Source: an uncultured Rhizobiaceae bacterium
Lineage (GTDB): Bacteria; Pseudomonadota; Alphaproteobacteria; UBA7879; VGCX01
Direction of reading: 5' to 3'
Assembly (NCBI GenBank): GCA_964350815.1
Contig: CAYGKW010000003.1
Coordinates: forward strand, 26,500-90,499
DNA length: 64,000 bases
The translations under genes and the position numbers were made by a program. A model generated the notes under the pieces. It saw nothing but the letters and a program-made list of their open reading frames with translations, did not search any database and was not told where the DNA came from. Shown piece by piece: positions 2,968 through 53,007 of this stretch; position 1 is the first letter of the stretch, and every line of letters begins with the position of its first letter.

Positions 2968-3633
2968 ATGCTAAAAAGCTTATCTATGCACTTTATTTTA
3001 TTCATTGCCTTAATAACAAGCAATGCAAATGCAGCCCCAAGATATATTACGATTGCAGATAATACCGACAGAATTCGTTCTGTATTCGAAGATTTAAAAG
3101 TTATTAATGACAGCATCCCTTACTTTCAAAACCGAAAAAACGATAAAAAGAATGCTGACCCTGAATTAGAAAGTGCGGTCATTGATTCAATGTATGATTT
3201 GCAAAATTTCTTTTCCAACACAGACAAAGGCGATAAAACTTTCGATCAAACTTTTGATGAAATCAGAAAAAACTTAACCGAACGTGAAGTTGAAGAAATC
3301 TTACGACAAAGCGGCATGTTTAATGAAATTGTTGACCCTATTTTAGGGGGAAGCTACCAAAGAATTGAAAAAGTTCCAGGATACAGCACCCATAGTAATG
3401 GGAAAGATAAATTGTGGCGTGCATACCTAGCCACGATCTTAGCCTTCCAATTAGAAGTTATTCGGTACATGCAAAATCTTATGAATACCTACACAAATTT
3501 GGGGGTGACAACCCTTATTTCCAGGTCAGACGAAGAAATTACTTTAAAGCCATTAAGCAAGGCTTTAAGGCTTGCAGGTCAAGAAGTTGCTGACTTAAAA
3601 CGAAGATTGCAAGATATTAAAGACCTATCATAA
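2968..3633 (+). CDS. secreted hypothetical protein
   Basis: 221-aa ORF; signal peptide with ANA/AP cleavage-like site; no recognisable domain. Confidence 0.5.
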   Translation: MLKSLSMHFILFIALITSNANAAPRYITIADNTDRIRSVFEDLKVINDSIPYFQNRKNDKKNADPELESAVIDSMYDLQNFFSNTDKGDKTFDQTFDEIRKNLTEREVEEILRQSGMFNEIVDPILGGSYQRIEKVPGYSTHSNGKDKLWRAYLATILAFQLEVIRYMQNLMNTYTNLGVTTLISRSDEEITLKPLSKALRLAGQEVADLKRRLQDIKDLS

Positions 3634-5020: not shown

Positions 5021-6343
5021 TTAATCGATTTTTGAAAATAATAGCTGTGAAGACTCTGTCCCAAACAAAGGGTGCATTTCAACACCATACGCATAGTCTT
5101 TATTAAGACCATTTGATTCGCCCATGGCACGGTTGGCTGTATCAACAACAACATGCGTGTCTTTTCCAGACCCAATAGTACCAAGAACAGTTCCTGTATG
5201 TCCGCCAGCTCCATAAAGGCCTACTGAAGGATTTTCTTCTACACAGTCCATTTTCATGCCGCGGCGAACCCAAACCATTCCAGGAATAAATTCATCTGGG
5301 GTTTTAAAATGAACAGGGCTGAATCCTGCAACAAGGGGGTCTCTATAAGCAGCATCTCCTGCCCCATGCCAATCAGACATAATTGAACCCCAAGCAGCAA
5401 CCACACCCCCTTTATCTAAATAAGGTCGGGCTGTTGGGTCCATGCTATCAACACTATGCAACCACCAATGTAAAGTTGATGGAGATATTCCTTTTTTCCC
5501 TGCATCACGCCATATTCTTGAAGAACAGTCCATCCATGGATAGTCACCCAAAAGTTCTGCTTCCGGCCCTTCATCTCCATGAAATGCCCCAAAACCGTAT
5601 CCATTGCCGGTTTCAAATAAGATAGCTCTGCCACCAATATGACCTAAGGATGAAAGTTTTTCCATATCATCCCAAGTCACATCTTCAGGCACTGGAACCC
5701 CCATATGCCAGGGGGATCTTTGCAACCAATCCGCCCCAAACAAACCCACCATTGCAGCATTTAAATCTGTTTGGCCGGTTGCTTCCAAATAAGCCATTTG
5801 AAGAAGTGTTATAGATGTACGTCCTTCACTGCTAACAAATAATTTTCCTGTATCTGCATAAGGAACTTCTGTTGGATCTGCAGAAAACACCCCATCAGTT
5901 CCATCAACCAAAGTAGAAAGTCTTGATAATCCTGCGGCTGCCAAATTCAAGTTTAATCCAATTTTATCTGAACGTAAGACCCATGCAAGCCCCCGTTTAC
6001 CTTCTTCTACTCTGGTTTTCTTTGCAACCTCTTTGGCTGCATCAAACTGATCATAATTTTCTTTCTCTGATTCAAGTCTTGCGGCAACTTGTCCTTCTAA
6101 TTTTTCCACATCCGGGTCGGCGTCAGTTATTGCCTTTTGTAAAGTGGCTAACCATTTTGCTTGTTCTTCACGCCTTGCAACACCTTCTTCATAGTGCCCC
6201 CTAATTATGGGGTTATCTGAAATGGCTTTTTTTGCAACAGCTACGACTTCTGAATCTGGATCAGAGGAAAAACTTCCTGCAGCAGCAGCAGCGATAGAAT
6301 CTAAAGAAAATAGTAGACTTGTAATTAATAGAATTTTTTTCAT
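5021..6343 (-). CDS. secreted hypothetical protein (about 440 aa, Gly/Trp/His-rich C-terminal half)
   Basis: Start taken at the internal MKKILLITSLLFSLDSIAAAAA signal peptide preceded by GAAAGAGG RBS (the ORF-track start at 6397 adds 18 aa); no recognisable catalytic motif; GC content above local background. Confidence 0.55.
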   Translation of the reverse strand: MKKILLITSLLFSLDSIAAAAAGSFSSDPDSEVVAVAKKAISDNPIIRGHYEEGVARREEQAKWLATLQKAITDADPDVEKLEGQVAARLESEKENYDQFDAAKEVAKKTRVEEGKRGLAWVLRSDKIGLNLNLAAAGLSRLSTLVDGTDGVFSADPTEVPYADTGKLFVSSEGRTSITLLQMAYLEATGQTDLNAAMVGLFGADWLQRSPWHMGVPVPEDVTWDDMEKLSSLGHIGGRAILFETGNGYGFGAFHGDEGPEAELLGDYPWMDCSSRIWRDAGKKGISPSTLHWWLHSVDSMDPTARPYLDKGGVVAAWGSIMSDWHGAGDAAYRDPLVAGFSPVHFKTPDEFIPGMVWVRRGMKMDCVEENPSVGLYGAGGHTGTVLGTIGSGKDTHVVVDTANRAMGESNGLNKDYAYGVEMHPLFGTESSQLLFSKID

Positions 6344-6417
6344 GTGAACCTCTTTCTTATTCCCTATAAATATAAGGATTACCAACAGGTTATACAATAT
6401 GTTTTGGGAATATATTT

Positions 6418-11046: not shown

Positions 11047-12261
11047 ATGGCCAAAAAGAAATCACAAAACAAATTAATAAAGTTTATCGCTGCCAGCGTT
11101 GGTATCATTCTAGTTGGATGTTCAATTGCTTGGTATGCCGGCATGCAAAAAGTTAAAGAAATTGATGCAAAATCAATTGAATATCTTGAAGCCCACGGAT
11201 TTAAAGTTGATCGATCTGAACCATCTTATTCAGGTTTCCCTTTCAAAATTGTCCGAAAAAGGGACTATTTTAACATGACGCAAGAACGTAAAGGCACAGT
11301 GTTTACATACACAATTGAAAGTCCAGAAATTTCAGCCTGGATATTCAACCCCACGCACCTTGAATTCGATGGAAAAGTAAAAATAAGCTTAAGCAGAAAT
11401 GGTCAAACTCCTGTTGAAATTGACTTAAACAAGGCAACAGTTGATTTAACCTTAGACAAAGAAGGGCAACTGATTCAAAAAGGTTGGGCTATCAATAATA
11501 TAAATTTCACTACAAACTCTGTGGAAGGTGCTGCTGTAAAAATCAATGAAATTGCTTCAAAATCTGAATCTGAATCAAAAGGCAACAACACAGAAATCGA
11601 ATCAGAATTTATTGTAAAAAACATTGAATTGGCCACAAAAGCAAAACCAATCGTAATTGATAAGATAAAGTTAAAAGGTAAAGTTACTTCCAAATTCAAA
11701 ACTTACGAAGCCATAAGCAAGGCAATTGAATCTTTAGACACTGAATTGCGCCAAAAAATCAATGAAAGTTGTGAATCAAAATCTGGGCGATTGCCTCCGA
11801 TTGGGGACATGATGAAGGAACTTGAAGACACAAAAGCCAAAGCGTCTGGTGAAATTGAAATTAAGATAGGGAAATTTAAATTGGAAATGGACCTTAATGC
11901 AAAAATCAAAGATGGATTCCCAGATCTTGATGTTAAAATCCTGTTAGATGACTTTGATCAAATGACACAAAGCATGGTTGAGGCAGGAACACTTGATCCA
12001 TCAAGCGAACAAATTGCCCGTTTATCTTTGTCTGCTGTGGCTGACCGTGATGCGAATGAAGGTGACTATGTTATCAAAGCCTCTTTAAAAGACAGAAAAT
12101 TTGTGGTTGGCAAAAATACAATCAAAGAATTTAAACAAGTTGATTGGAATAATATTCCTGTACCTGATGATTTTTGTCAAAAACATCAAGATCGCCTAAG
12201 CCGATCTGAAGGTTTAATGTTACAAGGGCTATCCCCCTACATCAGCTACCCTGTATTTTAA
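11047..12261 (+). CDS. hypothetical lipoprotein / membrane-anchored protein
   Basis: 404 aa; N-terminal hydrophobic segment ending LVGCS (lipobox); Lys/Glu-rich repetitive body; no recognisable domain. Confidence 0.5.
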   Translation: MAKKKSQNKLIKFIAASVGIILVGCSIAWYAGMQKVKEIDAKSIEYLEAHGFKVDRSEPSYSGFPFKIVRKRDYFNMTQERKGTVFTYTIESPEISAWIFNPTHLEFDGKVKISLSRNGQTPVEIDLNKATVDLTLDKEGQLIQKGWAINNINFTTNSVEGAAVKINEIASKSESESKGNNTEIESEFIVKNIELATKAKPIVIDKIKLKGKVTSKFKTYEAISKAIESLDTELRQKINESCESKSGRLPPIGDMMKELEDTKAKASGEIEIKIGKFKLEMDLNAKIKDGFPDLDVKILLDDFDQMTQSMVEAGTLDPSSEQIARLSLSAVADRDANEGDYVIKASLKDRKFVVGKNTIKEFKQVDWNNIPVPDDFCQKHQDRLSRSEGLMLQGLSPYISYPVF

Positions 12262-13685: not shown

Positions 13686-14855
13686 ATGAACGTTCATGAA
13701 TATCAAGCCAAACAATTATTAAAAAAATTTCACGTTCCTGTTCTTCCGGGATCTGTTGCCTTAAACCCAAGGGAGGCAATGGAGGCCGCCCGTGATATTC
13801 CATCCAATGTCTGGGTTGTAAAGGCCCAAGTTCATGCTGGAGGACGCGGTAAGGGCGGCGGGATTAAGCTTGCTAAATCTGTTGAAGAAGTTGGGGATTT
13901 AACCAAAAGTATGATTGGCATGAATCTTGTGACGCCACAAACATCCAAAGAAGGTAAGAAAGTTCGTTTTGTTTATGTGGAAAGTGGCTGCAATATTGAA
14001 ACTGAATTATATTACAGCATTTTAATTGACCGCGAAACCAAGCGCGTTACCATTGTTGCGTCATCAGAAGGCGGCGTGAATATTGAAGAAGTTGCTGAAA
14101 AAACACCTGAGAAAATCTTTAAAATTACCATTGACCCTGTGACAGGTATTTGTGGCCACCATATTCGTTACTTAAACAAAGCCCTTGGAATGCCGAAAGA
14201 AACAGCAAAGCTAATGGGCCAATTTGTTAAAAATACATACAAAGCATTTGTGGAATCGGATGCCTCTTTATTGGAAGTTAACCCCTTAGTCATCACGAAA
14301 GAAAATGATTTATATGCCTTGGATGCAAAAATGTCATTTGACAGTAATGCCTTGTATCGCCATCCAGATATTAAAATTTACCGGGATATGGACGAAGAAG
14401 ATCCAAAAGAATTAGAAGCCAGCGAATATGATCTGAACTATATTTCATTGGATGGGAATATTGGCTGTATGGTTAATGGGGCCGGCTTGGCGATGGCAAC
14501 CATGGACATCATTAAACTTCATGGCGGGGATCCGGCGAACTTTCTAGATGTTGGCGGCGGCGCCACCAAAGAAAAAGTAACAGAAGCCTTTAAAATTATT
14601 TTGGCAGACACCAAAGTCAAAGGCATCTTGGTTAATATATTCGGGGGCATCATGAAATGTGATGTTATTGCCGAAGGTATTATTGCTGCCGCCAAAGAAA
14701 CCAAACTTTCTGTGCCATTGGTTGTGCGCCTGCAAGGTACAAATGTAGAAAAAGGCAAAGAACTACTTGCCAAATCAGGGTTAAAAATTACAGCAGCCGA
14801 TGGTTTGGATGATGCTGCAAAAGAAATTGTATCTGCTGTGAAAGGGGGCAAATAA
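13686..14855 (+). CDS. sucC: succinate--CoA ligase (ADP-forming) beta subunit
   Basis: 389 aa; [13 protein letters not shown]-terminus, ATP-grasp fold, C-terminal [10 protein letters not shown]. Confidence 0.95.
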
Positions 14856-15727
14856 TGTCAGTCCTAATTAATAAAAATACAAAAGTTATTTGCCAAGGGT
14901 TCACTGGAAATCAAGGAACCTTTCATTCAGAACAAGCCATTGACTATGGCACAAAAATGGTTGGCGGGGTAACACCCGGTAAAGGTGGGTCAAAACATTT
15001 AGGCCTGCCTGTATTTGATTCTGTTATTGATGCCAAAGAAAAAACCAAGGCTGATGCCTCTGTTATCTATGTCCCTGCCCCCTTTGCTGCTGAATCAATT
15101 TTGGAAGCAATCGAGGCTGAAATTCCATTGGTTGTCTGTATTACTGAAGGCATTCCTGTTTTAGACATGGTTAAAGTAAAGCGCGCATTGGTTGGATCAA
15201 AAACAACCTTGATCGGTCCGAACTGTCCAGGCATCATAACGCCCAATCAATGTAAAATTGGGATTATGCCTGGCTACATCCATAAACCCGGCAAAGTTGG
15301 AATTGTTTCAAGGTCAGGCACTTTAACTTACGAAGCGGTTCATCAAACAACTGAGGCAGGCTTGGGACAATCCACCTGTATTGGTATTGGGGGGGATCCC
15401 GTTAATGGATTAAGTTTTGTTGACTGCCTAGAACTTTTTTATGCAGATCCAGAAACCGAAGCCATTGTTATGATCGGCGAAATTGGGGGAAATGCCGAAG
15501 AAGACGCCGCTGAATTCATCAAATCACAAAAGAATAAAAAGCCTGTAGTTGGCTTTATTGCTGGCCTTACAGCCCCCAAAGGGCGTACAATGGGTCATGC
15601 TGGCGCCATTATTTCTGGGGGCCAAGGGGGTGCTGAAGATAAAATCGAAGCATTAAAAAGTGCAGGTGTTATCGTATCAAAATCCCCTGCAGAAATTGGG
15701 GCAACAATGATAAAAAATTTTCAATAA
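14855..15727 (+). CDS. sucD: succinate--CoA ligase alpha subunit
   Basis: 290 aa; [11 protein letters not shown] and catalytic-His region GHAGAII; start overlaps the sucC stop. Confidence 0.95.
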
Positions 15728-15797
15728 CCAGTTGAAAAATCCTACAAACACTTTACTTATAAGATAGATTTAACAAACACTTGGATTGGAACTATTA

Positions 15798-16589
15798 ATG
15801 CAAAAAGGCAAATTAATTTTTGAAGGCAACAACAAAAAAATTTATGAATGCAATGATTCCAATTCTTTAATTCTGCAGTTCAAAGATGGGCCAAGTTCGT
15901 TAATTCAGCTTTCAGCCCACGGCCCCATTCATGGAAACGGTATTTTGTACAACACAATTTCCGGATTCATTATGCAAAAGCTTTCAGATTTAAATATTCC
16001 CACACATTTTATTGCACAACTAAATATGCGGGAACAGATGGTTCACTGCCTGGATATGTTTCCTTTTCGTGTTGTTATGCGCAATTATGCTGCAGGTAAT
16101 ATGATGCGTAAGTTTGGCCTTATTGAAGGAACCAAATTACCAAAACCAATGATTGAATATTACATTGATGCCTTTGAAGATACCGATTCTGAAAACATGT
16201 GCTTGATTGACAAGTCCCATATTGAAAGTATGGGTTGGGCCACGAAAGAAGAAATTGATCAAATTGAAGAAGCCACAAAGCGGGCCAATGATTTTATGAA
16301 TGGTTTGTTTTCAGGTATTAAACTTAAATTGGCAAATTTCAGCCTAAGTTTTGGCCGTCATTTTTCTTATGAAGAAGAAGACATCAAAGTTATGATTGGT
16401 AATGAAATTTCCCCAAAAACGTGTCGTCTGTGGGAAGATACCAGTGAAAATAAATTTAAATTTAGATACATCAGTTTATTAGAAGTTGCCGAACGTCTAA
16501 AACTTTTGCCCCAACACGCAGAAAATTCAAAAGAAAATTCTAAACCTGATACAAAACAAGACATTTACAAACTTAGTGATAAGGTATAA
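15798..16589 (+). CDS. SAICAR synthetase (PurC) family protein with degenerate active-site motifs and a C-terminal extension
   Basis: Aligns along its length with E. coli PurC (MQKGKLIFEG vs MQKQAELYRG; VMRNYAAGNMMRKFGLIEG vs VVRNRAAGSLVKRLGIEEG), but the canonical LVDFKLEFG is LANFSLSFG and GDEFSPD is GNEISPK; ATG at 15798 preferred over TTG at 15786. Confidence 0.65.
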   Translation: MQKGKLIFEGNNKKIYECNDSNSLILQFKDGPSSLIQLSAHGPIHGNGILYNTISGFIMQKLSDLNIPTHFIAQLNMREQMVHCLDMFPFRVVMRNYAAGNMMRKFGLIEGTKLPKPMIEYYIDAFEDTDSENMCLIDKSHIESMGWATKEEIDQIEEATKRANDFMNGLFSGIKLKLANFSLSFGRHFSYEEEDIKVMIGNEISPKTCRLWEDTSENKFKFRYISLLEVAERLKLLPQHAENSKENSKPDTKQDIYKLSDKV

Positions 16590-16591
16590 AA

Positions 16592-16822
16592 ATGGCTTTA
16601 ACAGAAAATGAAATTGTTAAGTATATTAAAGAGGCGCTGCCTGATGCTGAAATAAAAATTCAGGACTTGGCTGGTGACGGTGACCATTATGCAGTCAAAG
16701 TGATTTCTTCGGCTTTCAAAGGAAAATCACGCGTTCAGCAACATCAAATGGTATACAAGGCAATGAAAGGCCATATGGGCAGCACTTTGCATGCCATGGC
16801 TTTAAAAACTGAGGAAAAATAA
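16592..16822 (+). CDS. BolA family protein
   Basis: 76 aa; BolA-like helix-turn with conserved ...HALALKT C-terminal motif; immediately upstream of monothiol glutaredoxin, a conserved pairing. Confidence 0.8.
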
Positions 16823-16823
16823 A

Positions 16824-17153
16824 ATGGAAAACCCCCCAATTTTTAAATTGATTGAAAAACAGATCAAAGATAACGATGTGGTTTTATTTATGAAGGGAAC
16901 CCCAAATTTTCCTATGTGTGGTTTTTCTTCTGTTGTTTCCCAAGTTCTTCAAAACTTAGAAGTTGAATTTCATCCCGTTAATGTGATGGAAGATCCTGAA
17001 ATGCGCCAAGGTATAAAAGAATTTAGTGACTGGCCCACCATCCCACAACTATACGTCAAAGGGGAATTTATTGGGGGGTGTGACATCATTCGTGAAATGT
17101 ATAATGATGGTGACCTTCAAACCTTATTAAAAGAAAAGAAAATTATAAACTAA
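16824..17153 (+). CDS. grxD: monothiol glutaredoxin Grx4
   Basis: 109 aa with CGFS active site and VVLFMKGTP motif. Confidence 0.9.
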
Positions 17154-17154
17154 C

Positions 17155-18642
17155 ATGACTGAAAAATTATCAACAGAAAATCAATTACGCGACATTCGCA
17201 TACAGAAAATTGAAAAACTTAAGGAAATGGGCCTTAACCCCTACCCTTATAAATATGAAAGATCTGCCATTGCAAAAGATCTTCATGAAAAATACAAAGA
17301 CTTAGAAGATGACGAAGAAACAACTGATGTTGTGCGCATTGCCGGTCGTATTATGGCCATTCGCAACAGCGGTATGTTTATTGATTTGCTTGATGAATCA
17401 GGTCGCATTCAAGTATTCACCCATAAAAACAGCGCCAGCGAAGAAATTCTGGCACTGGCAAAACTTTTGGATATGGGGGATTGGATTGGAATTGAAGGTA
17501 TTGTCCGTCGTACAAAACGCGGGGAATTAACCATCAATACACAAAACATGGAATTGTTGTGTAAATCCCTGTTACCTTTACCGGAAAAATATCATGGGCT
17601 GACGGATATCGAAAAACGGTATCGCCAGCGCTATATCGACTTAATTGTTACCCCTGAAAGTCGTCAGCGCCTGCGTACACGCAGCCAAATTATTTCTGAC
17701 ATCCGTAATTATTTAACAAATGAAGGGTTTTTAGAAGTTGAAACTCCTATGCTACATGTCATCCCAGGGGGGGCAACGGCAAAGCCATTTGTGACCCATC
17801 ACAATGCATACGGCATGGATATGTATTTACGTGTGGCACCTGAATTACACCTAAAACGTCTTATTATCGGTGGGTTATCTGATAAAGTTTTTGAAATCAA
17901 TCGTTGTTTCAGAAACGAAGGGGTTTCCCCGCGCCATAACCCTGAATTTACCATGGTTGAAATGTATCAAGCCTTTGCTGATTTTGAAACCATGATGGAT
18001 TTAACAGAAAATATTGTTATTCATATTTGTGAAAAAGTATTGGGAACGTATGAAATTCCGTATGGCGACACCACCATTAATTTCAAAGGGCCTTGGCAAC
18101 GCAAAAGCATGATGACTTTGGTTAAAGAGGCAACGGGCATTGATTTCGATATTTTCAAAACAGCAGAAGAAGCCCTTGCAGCAGCCAAAAATATTGGCGG
18201 TATTCCCTTAAAAGGTACTGAATCTTGGGGCCATGTGGTTGAGGCCGTGTTTGCAGAAAAAGTTGAACCCAATTTGATTCAACCCACCCATGTGACCGAA
18301 CTTCCTTTAGATATTTCACCATTGGCAAAGGTGCATCGCAGCAACCCACGTCTAACAGAACGCTTTGAAACTTTTGTTAATACCTGGGAAATTGCGAATG
18401 CCTTTTCAGAATTAAATGATCCCATTGATCAACATCAACGCTTTGAAGGTCAAGTTGCCCAGCGTGAAGCCGGCGATGAAGAAGCCCAACACATGGACGC
18501 TGACTTTATTAATGCCTTGGAACATGGAATGCCGCCAACAGGTGGTTTAGGTATTGGGATTGACCGTTTGATTATGCTTTTGACAAATGCAACAAGTATA
18601 AGGGATGTGATTGCCTTCCCAACAATGAAGCCCAAAGATTAA
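17155..18642 (+). CDS. lysS: lysine--tRNA ligase (class II)
   Basis: 495 aa; OB-fold anticodon-binding N-domain, class II motifs (FRNEG, GGLGIGIDRL). Confidence 0.95.
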   Translation: MTEKLSTENQLRDIRIQKIEKLKEMGLNPYPYKYERSAIAKDLHEKYKDLEDDEETTDVVRIAGRIMAIRNSGMFIDLLDESGRIQVFTHKNSASEEILALAKLLDMGDWIGIEGIVRRTKRGELTINTQNMELLCKSLLPLPEKYHGLTDIEKRYRQRYIDLIVTPESRQRLRTRSQIISDIRNYLTNEGFLEVETPMLHVIPGGATAKPFVTHHNAYGMDMYLRVAPELHLKRLIIGGLSDKVFEINRCFRNEGVSPRHNPEFTMVEMYQAFADFETMMDLTENIVIHICEKVLGTYEIPYGDTTINFKGPWQRKSMMTLVKEATGIDFDIFKTAEEALAAAKNIGGIPLKGTESWGHVVEAVFAEKVEPNLIQPTHVTELPLDISPLAKVHRSNPRLTERFETFVNTWEIANAFSELNDPIDQHQRFEGQVAQREAGDEEAQHMDADFINALEHGMPPTGGLGIGIDRLIMLLTNATSIRDVIAFPTMKPKD

Positions 18643-18645
18643 GGT

Positions 18646-20358
18646 ATGAAAGAAAAAATATTTAAAATTATATCCAACCCGAATACCCCCTATTGGAAAG
18701 ATTTTTTTATCCTATTTTTAATTCTTGGCCCTATTCTATTTGGCTTTCTTGATCTGCGTCCCTTTGCCGTTCCGGATGAAGGCCGTTACGTTGAAATCCC
18801 AAGGGAAATGGCTGTAACAGGTGATTATATTACCCCGCGCCTGAATGGGCTTAAGTATTTTGAAAAGCCCCCGTTAATGTATTGGGTCCAAAGCTTTTTT
18901 ATTAAATCTTTCGGCCTCAAAGAGTGGGCAATGCGTTTGCCACTTGCGATCATGGGCTTATTTGGATGCTTTATGATTTATGCCGCGGGGCGTTTTTTGT
19001 TTAATCGTTCTTCTGGATTAATTGCTGCAACTATATTGGGATCCAGCCTACTTTATATTGTGTTATCCCAATTGATCACCTTGGATATGGGCGTTTCTTT
19101 TTTTCTAACGGCTTGTTTATTATCCTTCATAACAGCGGTCAATTTACAAAATTCCCAGCGCCGTCTATTTATGTATTGTGCTGCCATTTTTGCGGCTTTG
19201 TCCGTTTTAACGAAAGGGCTTATTGGATTGGCCTTGCCTGGTTTAATTGTTCTTATCTGGATAACCTTAACAAATAACTGGAAATTACTGGGCCAACTTT
19301 ATTTGCCCACCAGTATCTTAATATTTTTTGCAATCGCCACCCCGTGGCATATTTTGGTCAGCCTTAAAAACCCAGAATTTTTTGATTTTTATTTTATTAA
19401 TGAACATTTCAACCGCTTTTTAACCACGGTTCACCGCCGGTATCAACCTTTTTGGTTTTTTGTTCCCATTATCATTGCGGGGTTTATGCCTTGGACATCT
19501 TTCATGATCAAAGCCCTGTATAAAAGCATAAAATCTGCAAAGAAAAACCCCAATATTTTATTCTTTTTGCTTTGGACCCTTGTTCCTTTTGTCTTTTTCA
19601 GCCTGTCCAATTCAAAATTAATTCCTTATATTTTACCAATTTTTCCAGCCTTGGCCTTAATAACAGCAAACCACATATCGGATTGCATTCAAAAAAAGCA
19701 AAGCCTGCGATTTGAAATATTTGTTTTCAGTGGGATCTGTCTGGCCATTATGTTGGCCGGTTTTTATGGCATCCAAAGAATTGATTTGGACCTGTTTCTT
19801 AAATTAAAACCTTATATTATTCTTTTGTACTTTATTCTTGGGTTTTCGGCTGTAATACCCCCCATCCTTCGCATTTGGAAGGGAAATTTCTGGGCCTTTT
19901 GTTCAATTTTGGCCAGTGGACTTCTTATTATTATCACGGCAAATCTTGCATCTGTTCATGCCAACAAAATTTCCATCAAGCCTTTGGTTGCAAAGCTTAA
20001 AGCAATTATGCCGGAAGACACCAAAATCATCAGTTATTCAACGTATTATCACGATTTACCGGTTTACTTGAACAAGCTTATTACCATTCATAATTGGACA
20101 AATGAACTGGAATTTGGCCAAAAGATGGAGCCCCATAAGACACAGCGCCTAACCTATAATCATCAAGATGTGATTGATGCCTGGCAAAGCAAGGATTATG
20201 TTTGTATGTTTACAAAGCTTGAACTTTACAACAATAACTTAATTAATCAAAAATGGTTTACGCCCATGATCCTTGGCCAGCATGATAATCAAATACTGGT
20301 TTGCAATCGTATCCCCGAAGAGGCCTTGCAAAAATCTGCACAAGAAAAAATGCAATAA
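18646..20358 (+). CDS. arnT: undecaprenyl phosphate-alpha-4-amino-4-deoxy-L-arabinose arabinosyl transferase (GT83, ArnT-like)
   Basis: 570 aa polytopic membrane protein; DEGRYVEIPREMAVTGDYITPRLNGLKYFEKPPLMYW closely matches the ArnT periplasmic-loop signature. Confidence 0.85.
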   Translation: MKEKIFKIISNPNTPYWKDFFILFLILGPILFGFLDLRPFAVPDEGRYVEIPREMAVTGDYITPRLNGLKYFEKPPLMYWVQSFFIKSFGLKEWAMRLPLAIMGLFGCFMIYAAGRFLFNRSSGLIAATILGSSLLYIVLSQLITLDMGVSFFLTACLLSFITAVNLQNSQRRLFMYCAAIFAALSVLTKGLIGLALPGLIVLIWITLTNNWKLLGQLYLPTSILIFFAIATPWHILVSLKNPEFFDFYFINEHFNRFLTTVHRRYQPFWFFVPIIIAGFMPWTSFMIKALYKSIKSAKKNPNILFFLLWTLVPFVFFSLSNSKLIPYILPIFPALALITANHISDCIQKKQSLRFEIFVFSGICLAIMLAGFYGIQRIDLDLFLKLKPYIILLYFILGFSAVIPPILRIWKGNFWAFCSILASGLLIIITANLASVHANKISIKPLVAKLKAIMPEDTKIISYSTYYHDLPVYLNKLITIHNWTNELEFGQKMEPHKTQRLTYNHQDVIDAWQSKDYVCMFTKLELYNNNLINQKWFTPMILGQHDNQILVCNRIPEEALQKSAQEKMQ

Positions 20359-20478
20359 CGACGTCCTGTTTTTTAATCCTTCCCATAACATATTGAGTTA
20401 ACAAGAGGACGAGGCATAAGAGACGACGCCTACGAATGGTAGGCAAGGAACGCAATAACGACGTCCTATTTTTTAATC
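20352..20478. repeat. 27-bp direct repeat (GCAATAACGACGTCCTRTTTTTTAATC) at 20352-20378 and 20452-20478, flanking a 73-bp spacer
   Basis: Two copies with one mismatch; copy 1 spans the arnT stop codon and T-tract, copy 2 sits upstream of arnB. Confidence 0.7.
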
Positions 20479-20544
20479 ACTATGTTATAAAATTTTTCTG
20501 GGCGATTATTGAACTTTATGCTATTTTCTAGATGCTGAAGGAGT

Positions 20545-52125: not shown

Positions 52126-53007
52126 TTAAGCTGTTACTTCAGCTGTTGTTTTTCCAAAACCGAAAATGCGTTTAGCTGCAACATATCCTGCACCAGTAAC
52201 TTCTGCTGCTCTTCTGAACCAACCTTTGGCAGTTCTTGTTGCTGCTTGTGCCATTCCGGCGGCGGCAGTCCTTACTTTAATGTAGGCTCGTCCCATTGCA
52301 GTTGATTCATCAACAACACTTGTTCCAACAACCCAAGATAGAACTAGTTTTCCAGCTCTACTGGCTTTTTGCTCAACAATTTTTCCAAATTTCACAGCGA
52401 ATTTAGCTGCTGTTTTTTTCAAAGTGGGGTTTGTAAATGATTCTAAAGGCACCATATTTCTGGTCATTAATGTAACGCCACCCGCAATATCTGCTGCCGT
52501 TGCCTTTTCAGCCATATACATGGCTGCTGCGACTGTACCTGCTGTTGCAAGGCTTCCAGCGCCTTCTTCAAATGTTCCTTGAAGGGCTTGGCTTAAAGCA
52601 GTTACTACAGAGTAAATCACTCCAGCTTCTGCACTAACAAATGAAAGCTTAGATAGATTTCCTTCAGCCTGACCTAATGCCCAAACCATATCAGCATGCA
52701 TTTGTTTTGCTTCTGCGGTTGAAAACACAGGATCTGAATCTTCTACTTTTTTTTCTTTACCAAAGTCACCTAGTGCCTTCGCTTTTTTCTTTTGGAATCG
52801 CTCTTCTGTCATAGGGGAATCACCACTATGCATGGCTCCGCCACCTGCAAATCTTGTTGCGGCTTGAAAACCGTCTAAGAAACTTGAATTTACCACACGT
52901 ACAGTTCTTGTCGCACTGGCGCCTTCTTCTTCCATTCGTACCTCTGCAACTGCAGATGTACTTACTATTAATGCCGATGCGAAAATCGCATAAAACTTAT
53001 TCATCAA
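52126..53007 (-). CDS. secreted Ala-rich hypothetical protein
   Basis: 293 aa; signal peptide MMNKFYAIFASALIVSTSAVA; Ala/Thr/Gly-rich, GC-elevated; divergent from the lipase gene. Confidence 0.55.
   Translation of the reverse strand: MMNKFYAIFASALIVSTSAVAEVRMEEEGASATRTVRVVNSSFLDGFQAATRFAGGGAMHSGDSPMTEERFQKKKAKALGDFGKEKKVEDSDPVFSTAEAKQMHADMVWALGQAEGNLSKLSFVSAEAGVIYSVVTALSQALQGTFEEGAGSLATAGTVAAAMYMAEKATAADIAGGVTLMTRNMVPLESFTNPTLKKTAAKFAVKFGKIVEQKASRAGKLVLSWVVGTSVVDESTAMGRAYIKVRTAAAGMAQAATRTAKGWFRRAAEVTGAGYVAAKRIFGFGKTTAEVTA

Follow-up and report, generated by a model that had tools for sequence, protein, structure and literature searches.

The window analyzed here is a 64,000-nt (64-kb) stretch of contig CAYGKW010000003.1 from an uncultured Rhizobiaceae bacterium, and the gene in question, denoted below as purC*, encodes a protein with the PurC (SAICAR synthetase) fold and a degenerate active site. 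Its open reading frame (ORF) was called at positions 15798..16589 of the plus strand, stop codon included, and yields a protein of 263 amino acids (aa). The ATG start codon is at 15798 and the frame ends at 16589; an in-frame TTG is also present at 15786, but initiation there is improbable, given that every orthologue starts with MQKGKL. The gene belongs to a co-directional run comprising trxB, a DUF2125 gene, dut, mdh, sucC, sucD, purC*, bolA, grxD and lysS, after which an arnT-like lipid A modification cluster begins.

Directly upstream of purC* are sucC-sucD (ORF calls at 13686..15727, +), separated from it by a 70-nt spacer (15728..15797, +), in which searches for terminator hairpins and Rfam elements found neither a terminator-like hairpin nor a riboswitch or any other Rfam element. 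Downstream, bolA (16592..16822, +; 76 aa; PF01722, 56 bits) starts 2 nt past the purC* stop codon, and its Shine-Dalgarno-like sequence AAGG is located within the final codons of purC*. It is followed by the monothiol glutaredoxin gene grxD (16824..17153, +; 109 aa; PF00462, 72.6 bits), whose CGFS motif can be read in the translation, and by lysS (17155..18642, +), encoding a class II lysyl-tRNA synthetase, the gaps bolA-grxD and grxD-lysS being 1 nt each. Both bolA and grxD are probably co-translated with purC*. The spacing of 2-58 nt given in the initial annotation is correct as regards bolA, while the ATG lies 70 nt after sucD, and 58 nt results only when the TTG is taken. A tblastn search of the window yielded no purS, purQ, long-type purC or zeta-subunit gene, and no pur domains were seen among 20 further window ORFs that were scanned.

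Family assignment, fold and active site

The Pfam family SAICAR_synt (PF01259) matches purC* residues 7-216 (profile positions 2-201 of 233) with 142.1 bits (gathering score 20), and the top sequence match in PDB is 3kre, the Ehrlichia PurC (1e-40). The AlphaFold 2 (AF2) model has a predicted local distance difference test score (pLDDT) of 79.8 and a predicted template modelling score (pTM) of 0.77. In a Foldseek comparison of this model with PDB, 3kre is found at E 4e-22 with template modelling (TM) scores of 0.75/0.83, and ranks 1-38, that is, all significant PDB matches, are SAICAR synthetases or PAICS. The alignment with PurC over the ORF length, as originally noted, is borne out, and the fold is intact in the model. 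The regions of low model confidence are the loop at aa 34-42 (pLDDT <50), the loop at aa 127-131 and the C-terminal tail (aa 241-263). At the same time, purC* scores 114.5 bits with the NCBI equivalog model for purC, TIGR00081, which is below its cut-off of 189.9.

The Ser/Lys/Glu-rich tail (aa 239-263; 16512..16586, +) is predicted to be disordered, with pLDDT <50. It had been described as an extension, and it is indeed real, but it is not special to the degenerate form: canonical relatives have tails too, of about 15 aa in canonical alphaproteobacterial PurCs and about 35-45 aa in canonical Micavibrio-like ones.

Active-site residues were mapped by alignment to E. coli PurC (verified from NC_000913), human PAICS and canonical relatives, and conservation was assessed in a reference set of 49 canonical 50%-identity cluster representatives, ranging from E. 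coli to human. In human PAICS, G16-K19 bind ATP, E97 and D137 bridge MgB/MgC, K191, K228 and R232 bind aspartate, E193, D207, D212 and R215 line the site, and T40-N43 form the substrate loop; the role of the enzyme is to position the substrates and three Mg ions (PMC9376930). In the numbering of the E. coli protein, which is used below, E179 contacts ADP, while S100, R94, R199 and D175, all fully conserved, contact the substrate carboxyaminoimidazole ribonucleotide (CAIR) (PMC3261824).

The replacements in purC* are K11N, E90R, S100N, K123D, D129M, D175N, K177S, E179S, D191N and D196K, with K13, R94 and R199 being retained. In the canonical set K123, D125, D129, D175, K177, E179, D191, D196 and R199 are kept in 100% of representatives, E90 and R94 in 98%, S100 in 92%, and K11 in 88%. 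Since the same positions are near-invariant in 49 canonical clusters, chance variation does not explain the substitutions in purC*. None of the four acidic Mg ligands is left, E90, D129, E179 and D191 corresponding to R91, M134, S184 and N202 of purC*. Among the CAIR contacts, R94 and R199 are kept, and S100 and D175 are both changed to Asn; the aspartate-binding K177 is replaced by Ser, and in the phosphate loop K11 is replaced by Asn, with K13 kept.

These changes are spread over several segments of the protein. The remnant of the phosphate-binding GKAK loop is EGNNKK (aa 9-14; 15822..15839, +), where GKAK became GNNK. In place of the FKDDATAFN substrate loop there is FKDGPSSLIQLS (aa 28-39; 15879..15914, +), a region of low model confidence with a one-residue insertion, TAFN being replaced by SSLIQLS. 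In DMFPFRVVMRNYAAGN (aa 86-101; 16053..16100, +) the Mg ligand is lost through E90R (IPLEVV to FPFRVV) and S100N changes AAGS to AAGN, while R94 is kept. The YKxDxLGDP loop is replaced by IDAFEDTDSENMC (aa 123-135; 16164..16202, +), with K123D, D129M and an insertion; the equivalent of D125 here is D130 or F126, depending on the alignment. LANFSLSFGR (aa 178-187; 16329..16358, +) stands for the canonical LVDFKLEFGR and carries D175N, K177S and E179S, and GNEISPKTCRLWE (aa 201-213; 16398..16436, +), compared with the canonical ADEISPDxCRLWD, carries D191N and D196K, R199 being kept. Finally, in the K211/R215 region there is an 8-residue deletion after KFRY. Translation and alignment agree with the initial annotation in the reading of LANFSLSFG and GNEISPK, and on realignment the substitutions fall on Mg, ATP, CAIR and aspartate ligands, not outside the active site.

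Judging from these residues, purC* very probably has no SAICAR-synthetase activity. The cleft, strongly acidic in the canonical enzyme, is neutral or cationic in purC*, five acidic residues having been lost and R91 and K207 gained; therefore, Mg-free binding of an anionic ligand or of a partner is possible.

Orthologues, selection and the wider radiation

Orthologues of the window protein form two clades. Members of clade A, among them Tara Oceans contigs, are 81-100% identical to it, while members of clade B, located on separate contigs, are 44-48% identical; one of the latter comes from a metagenome-assembled genome (MAG) labelled K_DeepCast_35m. In clade B the two motifs read LVSYTLRFGR and GDEITPRTCELW. 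The ORF, of 262-276 aa, is intact in every retrieved full-length sequence and locus of both clades, these coming from separate assemblies, and the gene order sucC-sucD-purC*-bolA is kept in both. There are 71 positions invariant across clades A and B. Only three carriers of clade A/B genes were found among GTDB species representatives, and the additions from a metagenome scan were limited to clade A/B members and Micavibrio-like loci. One clade B genome (L003:1290-1886 (-)/L004) also has genes for an alternative oxidase (PF01786, AOX) and NifU/Nfu a few kb 5' of trxB-sucCD-purC*.

The ratio of nonsynonymous to synonymous substitution rates (dN/dS, omega) was estimated by the method of Nei and Gojobori (NG86). 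For the window gene and its orthologue from locus L040, which are 95% identical, with dS unsaturated, dN is 0.028, dS is 0.385 and omega is 0.074; in the same comparison sucC, sucD, bolA, grxD and lysS have omega of 0.024-0.049. Omega is about 0.06 in clade A (comparisons with L001 and L006) and 0.046 in clade B, dS being saturated at these divergences. Thus strong purifying selection acts on purC*, to about the same degree as on its housekeeping neighbours; the gene is retained, not decaying, and very probably encodes a functional protein.

To place purC* among other PurCs, a degenerate PurC was defined as an alpha-type short PurC backbone with at least three central catalytic residues replaced, and profile A2, built from clades A and B, was run over 1.84 billion cluster representatives at 50% identity. 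All of clades A and B falls under a single representative, P0001, with 470 bits, the next score being 238 bits. Exact look-ups of the window protein and of P0001 turned up no contig on record. About 80 of the top 150 representatives are full-length degenerate alpha-type short PurCs and 46-49 are fully canonical, the remainder being fragments or frameshift/duplication chimeras. Some of the entries are PurC "proteins" in which 60-130 internal residues are duplicated in tandem (P0121, P0123, P0415, P0416) or in which the C-terminus is frameshifted (P0137, P0139, P0152, P0161); such duplicated or frameshifted entries are probably assembly or gene-calling artefacts, which inflate the profile scores. 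The four entries with duplications had been considered as candidate PurC-BolA fusions, and were rejected as tandem-duplication assembly chimeras.

With 10 of 15 key positions replaced, the window purC* groups with the approximately 80 degenerate representatives. In the 71 other degenerate representatives the CAIR-Mg ligands (E90 8%, D129 10%, D125 10%) and the aspartate site (K177 20%, K211 11%, R215 10%) are seldom retained, while the ATP side often is (K13 90%, D191 80%, E179 65%). The window clade is the extreme case, with E179 and D191 lost as well. These sequence frequencies suggest a stepwise loss, in which the CAIR-Mg and aspartate sites would have been lost first and the ATP side last. 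Degenerate PurCs are 34% identical to each other and 36% identical to canonical ones, and a profile built from 70 degenerate sequences (A4) retrieves canonical Rhodospirillales-type PurCs first and no named carriers. Both observations fit many independent degenerations as well as one old, fast-evolving radiation.

Genomic context across lineages

In at least six mutually divergent lineages (33-46% identity) purC* is followed by co-directional bolA, in the order purC*->bolA(->grxD), with gaps between purC* and bolA of -1 to 36 nt. The loci with purC* directly 5' of bolA are L001-L006, L035, L036, L040-42, L045, L057 and L058. Clade A, with the window, has a gap of 2 nt, clade B one of 5 nt, and P0122/L035 again one of 2 nt, with grxD-lysS following in the same order as in the window; in P0140/L057 the two genes overlap by 1 nt, and the order purC*->bolA is also found in P0145/L036 and P0153/L058. 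The genes upstream of purC* vary by lineage, being sucD, radC, a photolyase gene or a thioredoxin gene, and the sucC-sucD neighbourhood is kept only in clades A and B. The conserved unit is purC*-bolA-grxD, and the sucCD linkage is confined to these two clades. Of the operon context described initially, with genes of the tricarboxylic acid (TCA) cycle on one side and of Fe-S trafficking on the other, the bolA-grxD linkage stands and the TCA linkage is a feature of particular lineages.

Two observations concern lysS in these loci. In L035 an 88-aa lysS fragment (14040-14306, +; PF00152) lies about 3 kb past the full-length lysS and is followed by a gene for a leucine-rich-repeat (LRR) protein; the fragment gives a 100-aa tblastn match (14001-14300) that is 76% identical to the window LysS. 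The nearest named LysS is that of Candidatus Nucleicultrix amoebiphila (63%), where lysS adjoins neither purC nor bolA.

The canonical arrangement is represented by Pseudooceanicola, where purC and a zeta-subunit gene (PF07345) point away from each other and purS comes after purC. The nearest canonical relatives of purC* come from Micavibrio-like MAGs; they are 38-41% identical to it and have every catalytic residue intact. The gene order there is grxD<-bolA<-zeta<- ->purC, and since these canonical loci already have bolA-grxD next to purC, the adjacency predates the degeneration. The zeta-subunit (F1-ATPase inhibitor) gene is a conserved divergent neighbour of purC in canonical and some degenerate lineages (L009:9528-9851(-), L038:67-399(-), L039:9524-9838(-) and about 30 other loci), and is absent from the window. 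It was also considered whether purC*-bolA arose from a purC...purL-bolA-grxD operon, as in Rhizobiales, that had lost purS-purQ-purL, but this origin is unsupported; in the canonical loci with purS and purQ (L019, L027, L028, L039) there is no bolA or grxD within 10 kb.

In two loci (L031:9803-12095 and L034:9575-11675) a short PurC carrying E90Q/G, D129N and K177R stands immediately before a long-type PurC of 339-341 aa, which reads VDTKYEFG...IDEIHTPDSSRFW, and purS comes next, with purQ and the zeta-subunit gene located upstream. This tandem resembles a halfway point on the way to replacement of the short enzyme. It shows a second route, beside loss of the pathway, by which catalysis by the short PurC can become dispensable. 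Three other loci from Micavibrio-labelled MAGs (L030, L032 and L033, 10001-10850 in each) contain a variant PurC with GLTK for GKAK, D129R, K177R/N and R215D/N, and with E90, E179 and D191 unchanged. Behind this variant, L030 and L032 have ORFs resembling gcvT and gcvH, as read from sequence alone, and not pur genes.

Several other genes of the window deserve mention. The DUF2125 protein encoded between trxB and dut (11047-12261, +) evolves much faster than its neighbours, being 57% identical to the L001 orthologue versus 88-93% for the flanking genes, with dN/dS of 0.18-0.20. Right after lysS (18646-23723, +) there are genes for an arnT-like glycosyltransferase (PMT_2/Arnt_C), a DegT-type aminotransferase, a glycosyltransferase of family 2 (GT2) and an epimerase/dehydratase, which form a lipid A aminoarabinose-type modification cluster, kept in L001 and L002. 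ORFs of 180-458 aa without a Pfam match are located at 130-672, 731-1513, 1973-2875 and 2968-3633 (+), and at 5021-6397 and 52126-53007 (-); most of them have hydrophobic, signal-peptide-like N-termini and may encode lineage-specific secreted or surface proteins.

Possible function of purC*

The suggestion that purC* is a repurposed PurC scaffold that lost catalysis agrees with the ligand losses, the intact predicted fold, dN/dS of 0.074 and ORFs intact at about 46% identity, and on this sequence evidence purC* is most likely a repurposed pseudoenzyme. As the best explanation, in which we place reasonable though far from full confidence, we propose that it is a non-catalytic descendant of the alphaproteobacterial short-type PurC, retained as a binding protein, with an accessory role beside BolA-GrxD as the leading candidate. 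Either the loss of de novo purine synthesis or, as in L031 and L034, the takeover by a long-type PurC would have relaxed the constraint on catalysis. The Mg, CAIR and aspartate sites are lost and the PurC fold is retained, and the protein would act by binding instead of catalysis. It could assist or regulate the BolA-GrxD [2Fe-2S] trafficking pair, being produced together with it, and its remodelled Mg-free cleft, neutral to cationic, may bind an anionic ligand or a partner protein. The tie of its function to BolA/GrxD is a tentative element of this proposal, somewhat short of even chances. More speculative, and in our opinion doubtful, is a specific version, according to which purC* is a dedicated third component of BolA-GrxD [2Fe-2S] trafficking or sensing, that is, an adaptor or a nucleotide-responsive regulator linking Fe-S delivery to the metabolic state, which would derive, through several separate events or a single very early one, from a pur-operon gene beside bolA-grxD in a large radiation of probably host-associated alphaproteobacteria.

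Several observations weigh against the preferred explanation. The link to BolA-GrxD may be inherited synteny, since in the Micavibrio-like MAGs bolA-grxD are located near purC, on the opposite strand and with the zeta-subunit gene in between. Some degenerate PurCs do not adjoin bolA (P0124/L038 and L030-L034); in P0124 the zeta-subunit gene is divergent from purC* and a NAD kinase gene comes after it. No PurC-BolA fusion was found among 534 proteins. The alignment of the K211/R215 region is ambiguous because of the 8-residue deletion, two alignments being in disagreement. Finally, the former pocket positions are identical between clades A and B in only 4-5 of 16 cases versus 46-49% elsewhere, the faster evolution of these residues being not significant (Fisher p 0.06-0.17). 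This lack of agreement between the clades speaks against a common new ligand in the former pocket.

The latter point bears directly on a different explanation, in which purC* is a neo-functionalised enzyme or a small-molecule sensor, whose cleft binds a new ligand (a nucleotide, or a phosphorylated or carboxylated metabolite) without Mg and independently of BolA/GrxD, the operon position being merely inherited. The retained K13, R94 and R199 together with the new basic residues R91 and K207, which make the cleft neutral or cationic, would suit such a protein, as would the frequent retention of the ATP-side residues K13, D191 and E179 in the wider degenerate family and the fact that the bolA-grxD adjacency is older than the degeneration. 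But the pocket differs between clades A and B (R91/T, S184/K, N202/D, R210/E), with no shared new ligand site visible, E179 and D191 are also lost in the window clade, and the tight purC*-bolA junction persists at 33-46% identity despite the changed upstream genes; we consider this explanation unlikely. Less probable still is that an ancestral moonlighting function of the alpha-type short PurC was retained, with catalysis becoming dispensable after the long-type PurC took over and purines still being made. It would account for the partly degenerate short PurC (E90Q/G, D129N, K177R) directly 5' of the long-type PurC in L031/L034, with purS and purQ nearby, and both the 34%/36% distances and the behaviour of profile A4 are in keeping with a canonical ancestor that degenerated several times independently. 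The degenerate and canonical sets share many conserved non-catalytic positions (NMREQ, RxNDF, GR, EVAxRLG), but they may just maintain the fold; moreover, the 64-kb window is without long-type PurC, purS and purQ, and literature searches gave no moonlighting role for bacterial PurC.

The other option raised in the initial annotation was a neutral remnant of a lost purine pathway, whose ORF would be kept open only for transcription or translational coupling to bolA-grxD. The 2 nt from the purC* stop to the bolA start, the Shine-Dalgarno-like sequence of bolA inside purC* and the absence of pur genes from the window can be read in this way. However, such an operon constraint bars stop codons and frameshifts and spares missense changes, so that dN/dS would be expected near 1, while it is 0.074 at dS of 0.385, near the values of the housekeeping neighbours; with the 71 positions invariant across clades A and B and the confident AF2 fold also speaking against it, this option is not supported, and we regard it as highly improbable. 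Hardly any weight can be given, either, to the idea that purC* remains an active SAICAR synthetase relying on other, divergent residues, in spite of its full-length alignment with PurC, the label of SAICAR synthase given to its relatives, and the conserved K13, R94 and R199. The four acidic Mg ligands, the aspartate-binding lysine and the CAIR contact D175 are all replaced (in canonical PurCs E90 is kept in 98% and the rest in 100%), the enzyme works by positioning three Mg ions and the substrates (PMC9376930), and the score lies under the TIGR00081 cut-off.

If the preferred interpretation of purC* as a non-catalytic binding protein is correct, the known pseudoenzymes would gain a widespread family that descends from a core enzyme of purine biosynthesis. 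In terms of annotation, purC* is a catalytically degenerate form of a known enzyme family, widespread and without a name. Pipelines of the Joint Genome Institute (JGI) label its relatives as SAICAR synthase, so that the family is partly mis-annotated, while a clade B member is named "hypothetical protein" by the NCBI pipeline PGAP. Because of the former label, metabolic reconstructions of such uncultured alphaproteobacteria may wrongly score the purine step as present; the NCBI cut-off prevents the mislabelling but leaves purC* "hypothetical". Moreover, the series from canonical PurCs through partly degenerate ones beside a long-type PurC to fully degenerate ones is a natural system for studying the stepwise loss of catalysis, and the purC*-bolA-grxD unit points to a candidate partner, open to experimental test, of the BolA-monothiol-glutaredoxin pair, whose functions in bacteria are under debate.

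A precedent for an enzyme fold of nucleotide metabolism without catalysis, selected as a binding or regulatory subunit, is HisZ, a catalytically inactive paralogue of histidyl-tRNA synthetase that serves as the regulatory subunit of ATP phosphoribosyltransferase. The partner of HisZ is HisG, from the same pathway, whereas the partner of purC* is suggested by operon structure only and lies outside purine metabolism. The other system to be compared is the [2Fe-2S] pair of BolA and monothiol glutaredoxin (Grx4/GrxD), whose genes are the conserved ones 3' of purC*. Full-text literature searches found no description of a PurC-like third component of the BolA-Grx pair, and no paper on a degenerate or pseudo-PurC or on a purC-bolA-grxD unit.

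The partly degenerate PurCs from L031/L034 and L030/L032/L033 have the same alpha-type short origin as purC*, with the first losses at E90, D129 and K177. Those from L030-L034 keep E179, D191, D196 and R199, and they are located at the ancestral site, divergent from the zeta-subunit gene and beside purS/purQ/long purC or gcvT-gcvH, not beside bolA. With the short bacterial PurC (PF01259; TIGR00081; structures 3kre, 2gqr/2gqs and 4fe2) purC* has in common the fold and the domain order, 30-41% identity to alphaproteobacterial PurCs, and the non-catalytic signatures NMREQ, RN.A.G, R.ND, GR, E.SP..C.LW and EVA.RL. It differs from the short PurC in having 10 of 15-16 mapped substrate and metal ligands replaced, in a score under the equivalog cut-off, in substrate loops rebuilt with one insertion and one deletion, and in that it has no pur gene nearby and heads the bolA-grxD unit instead.

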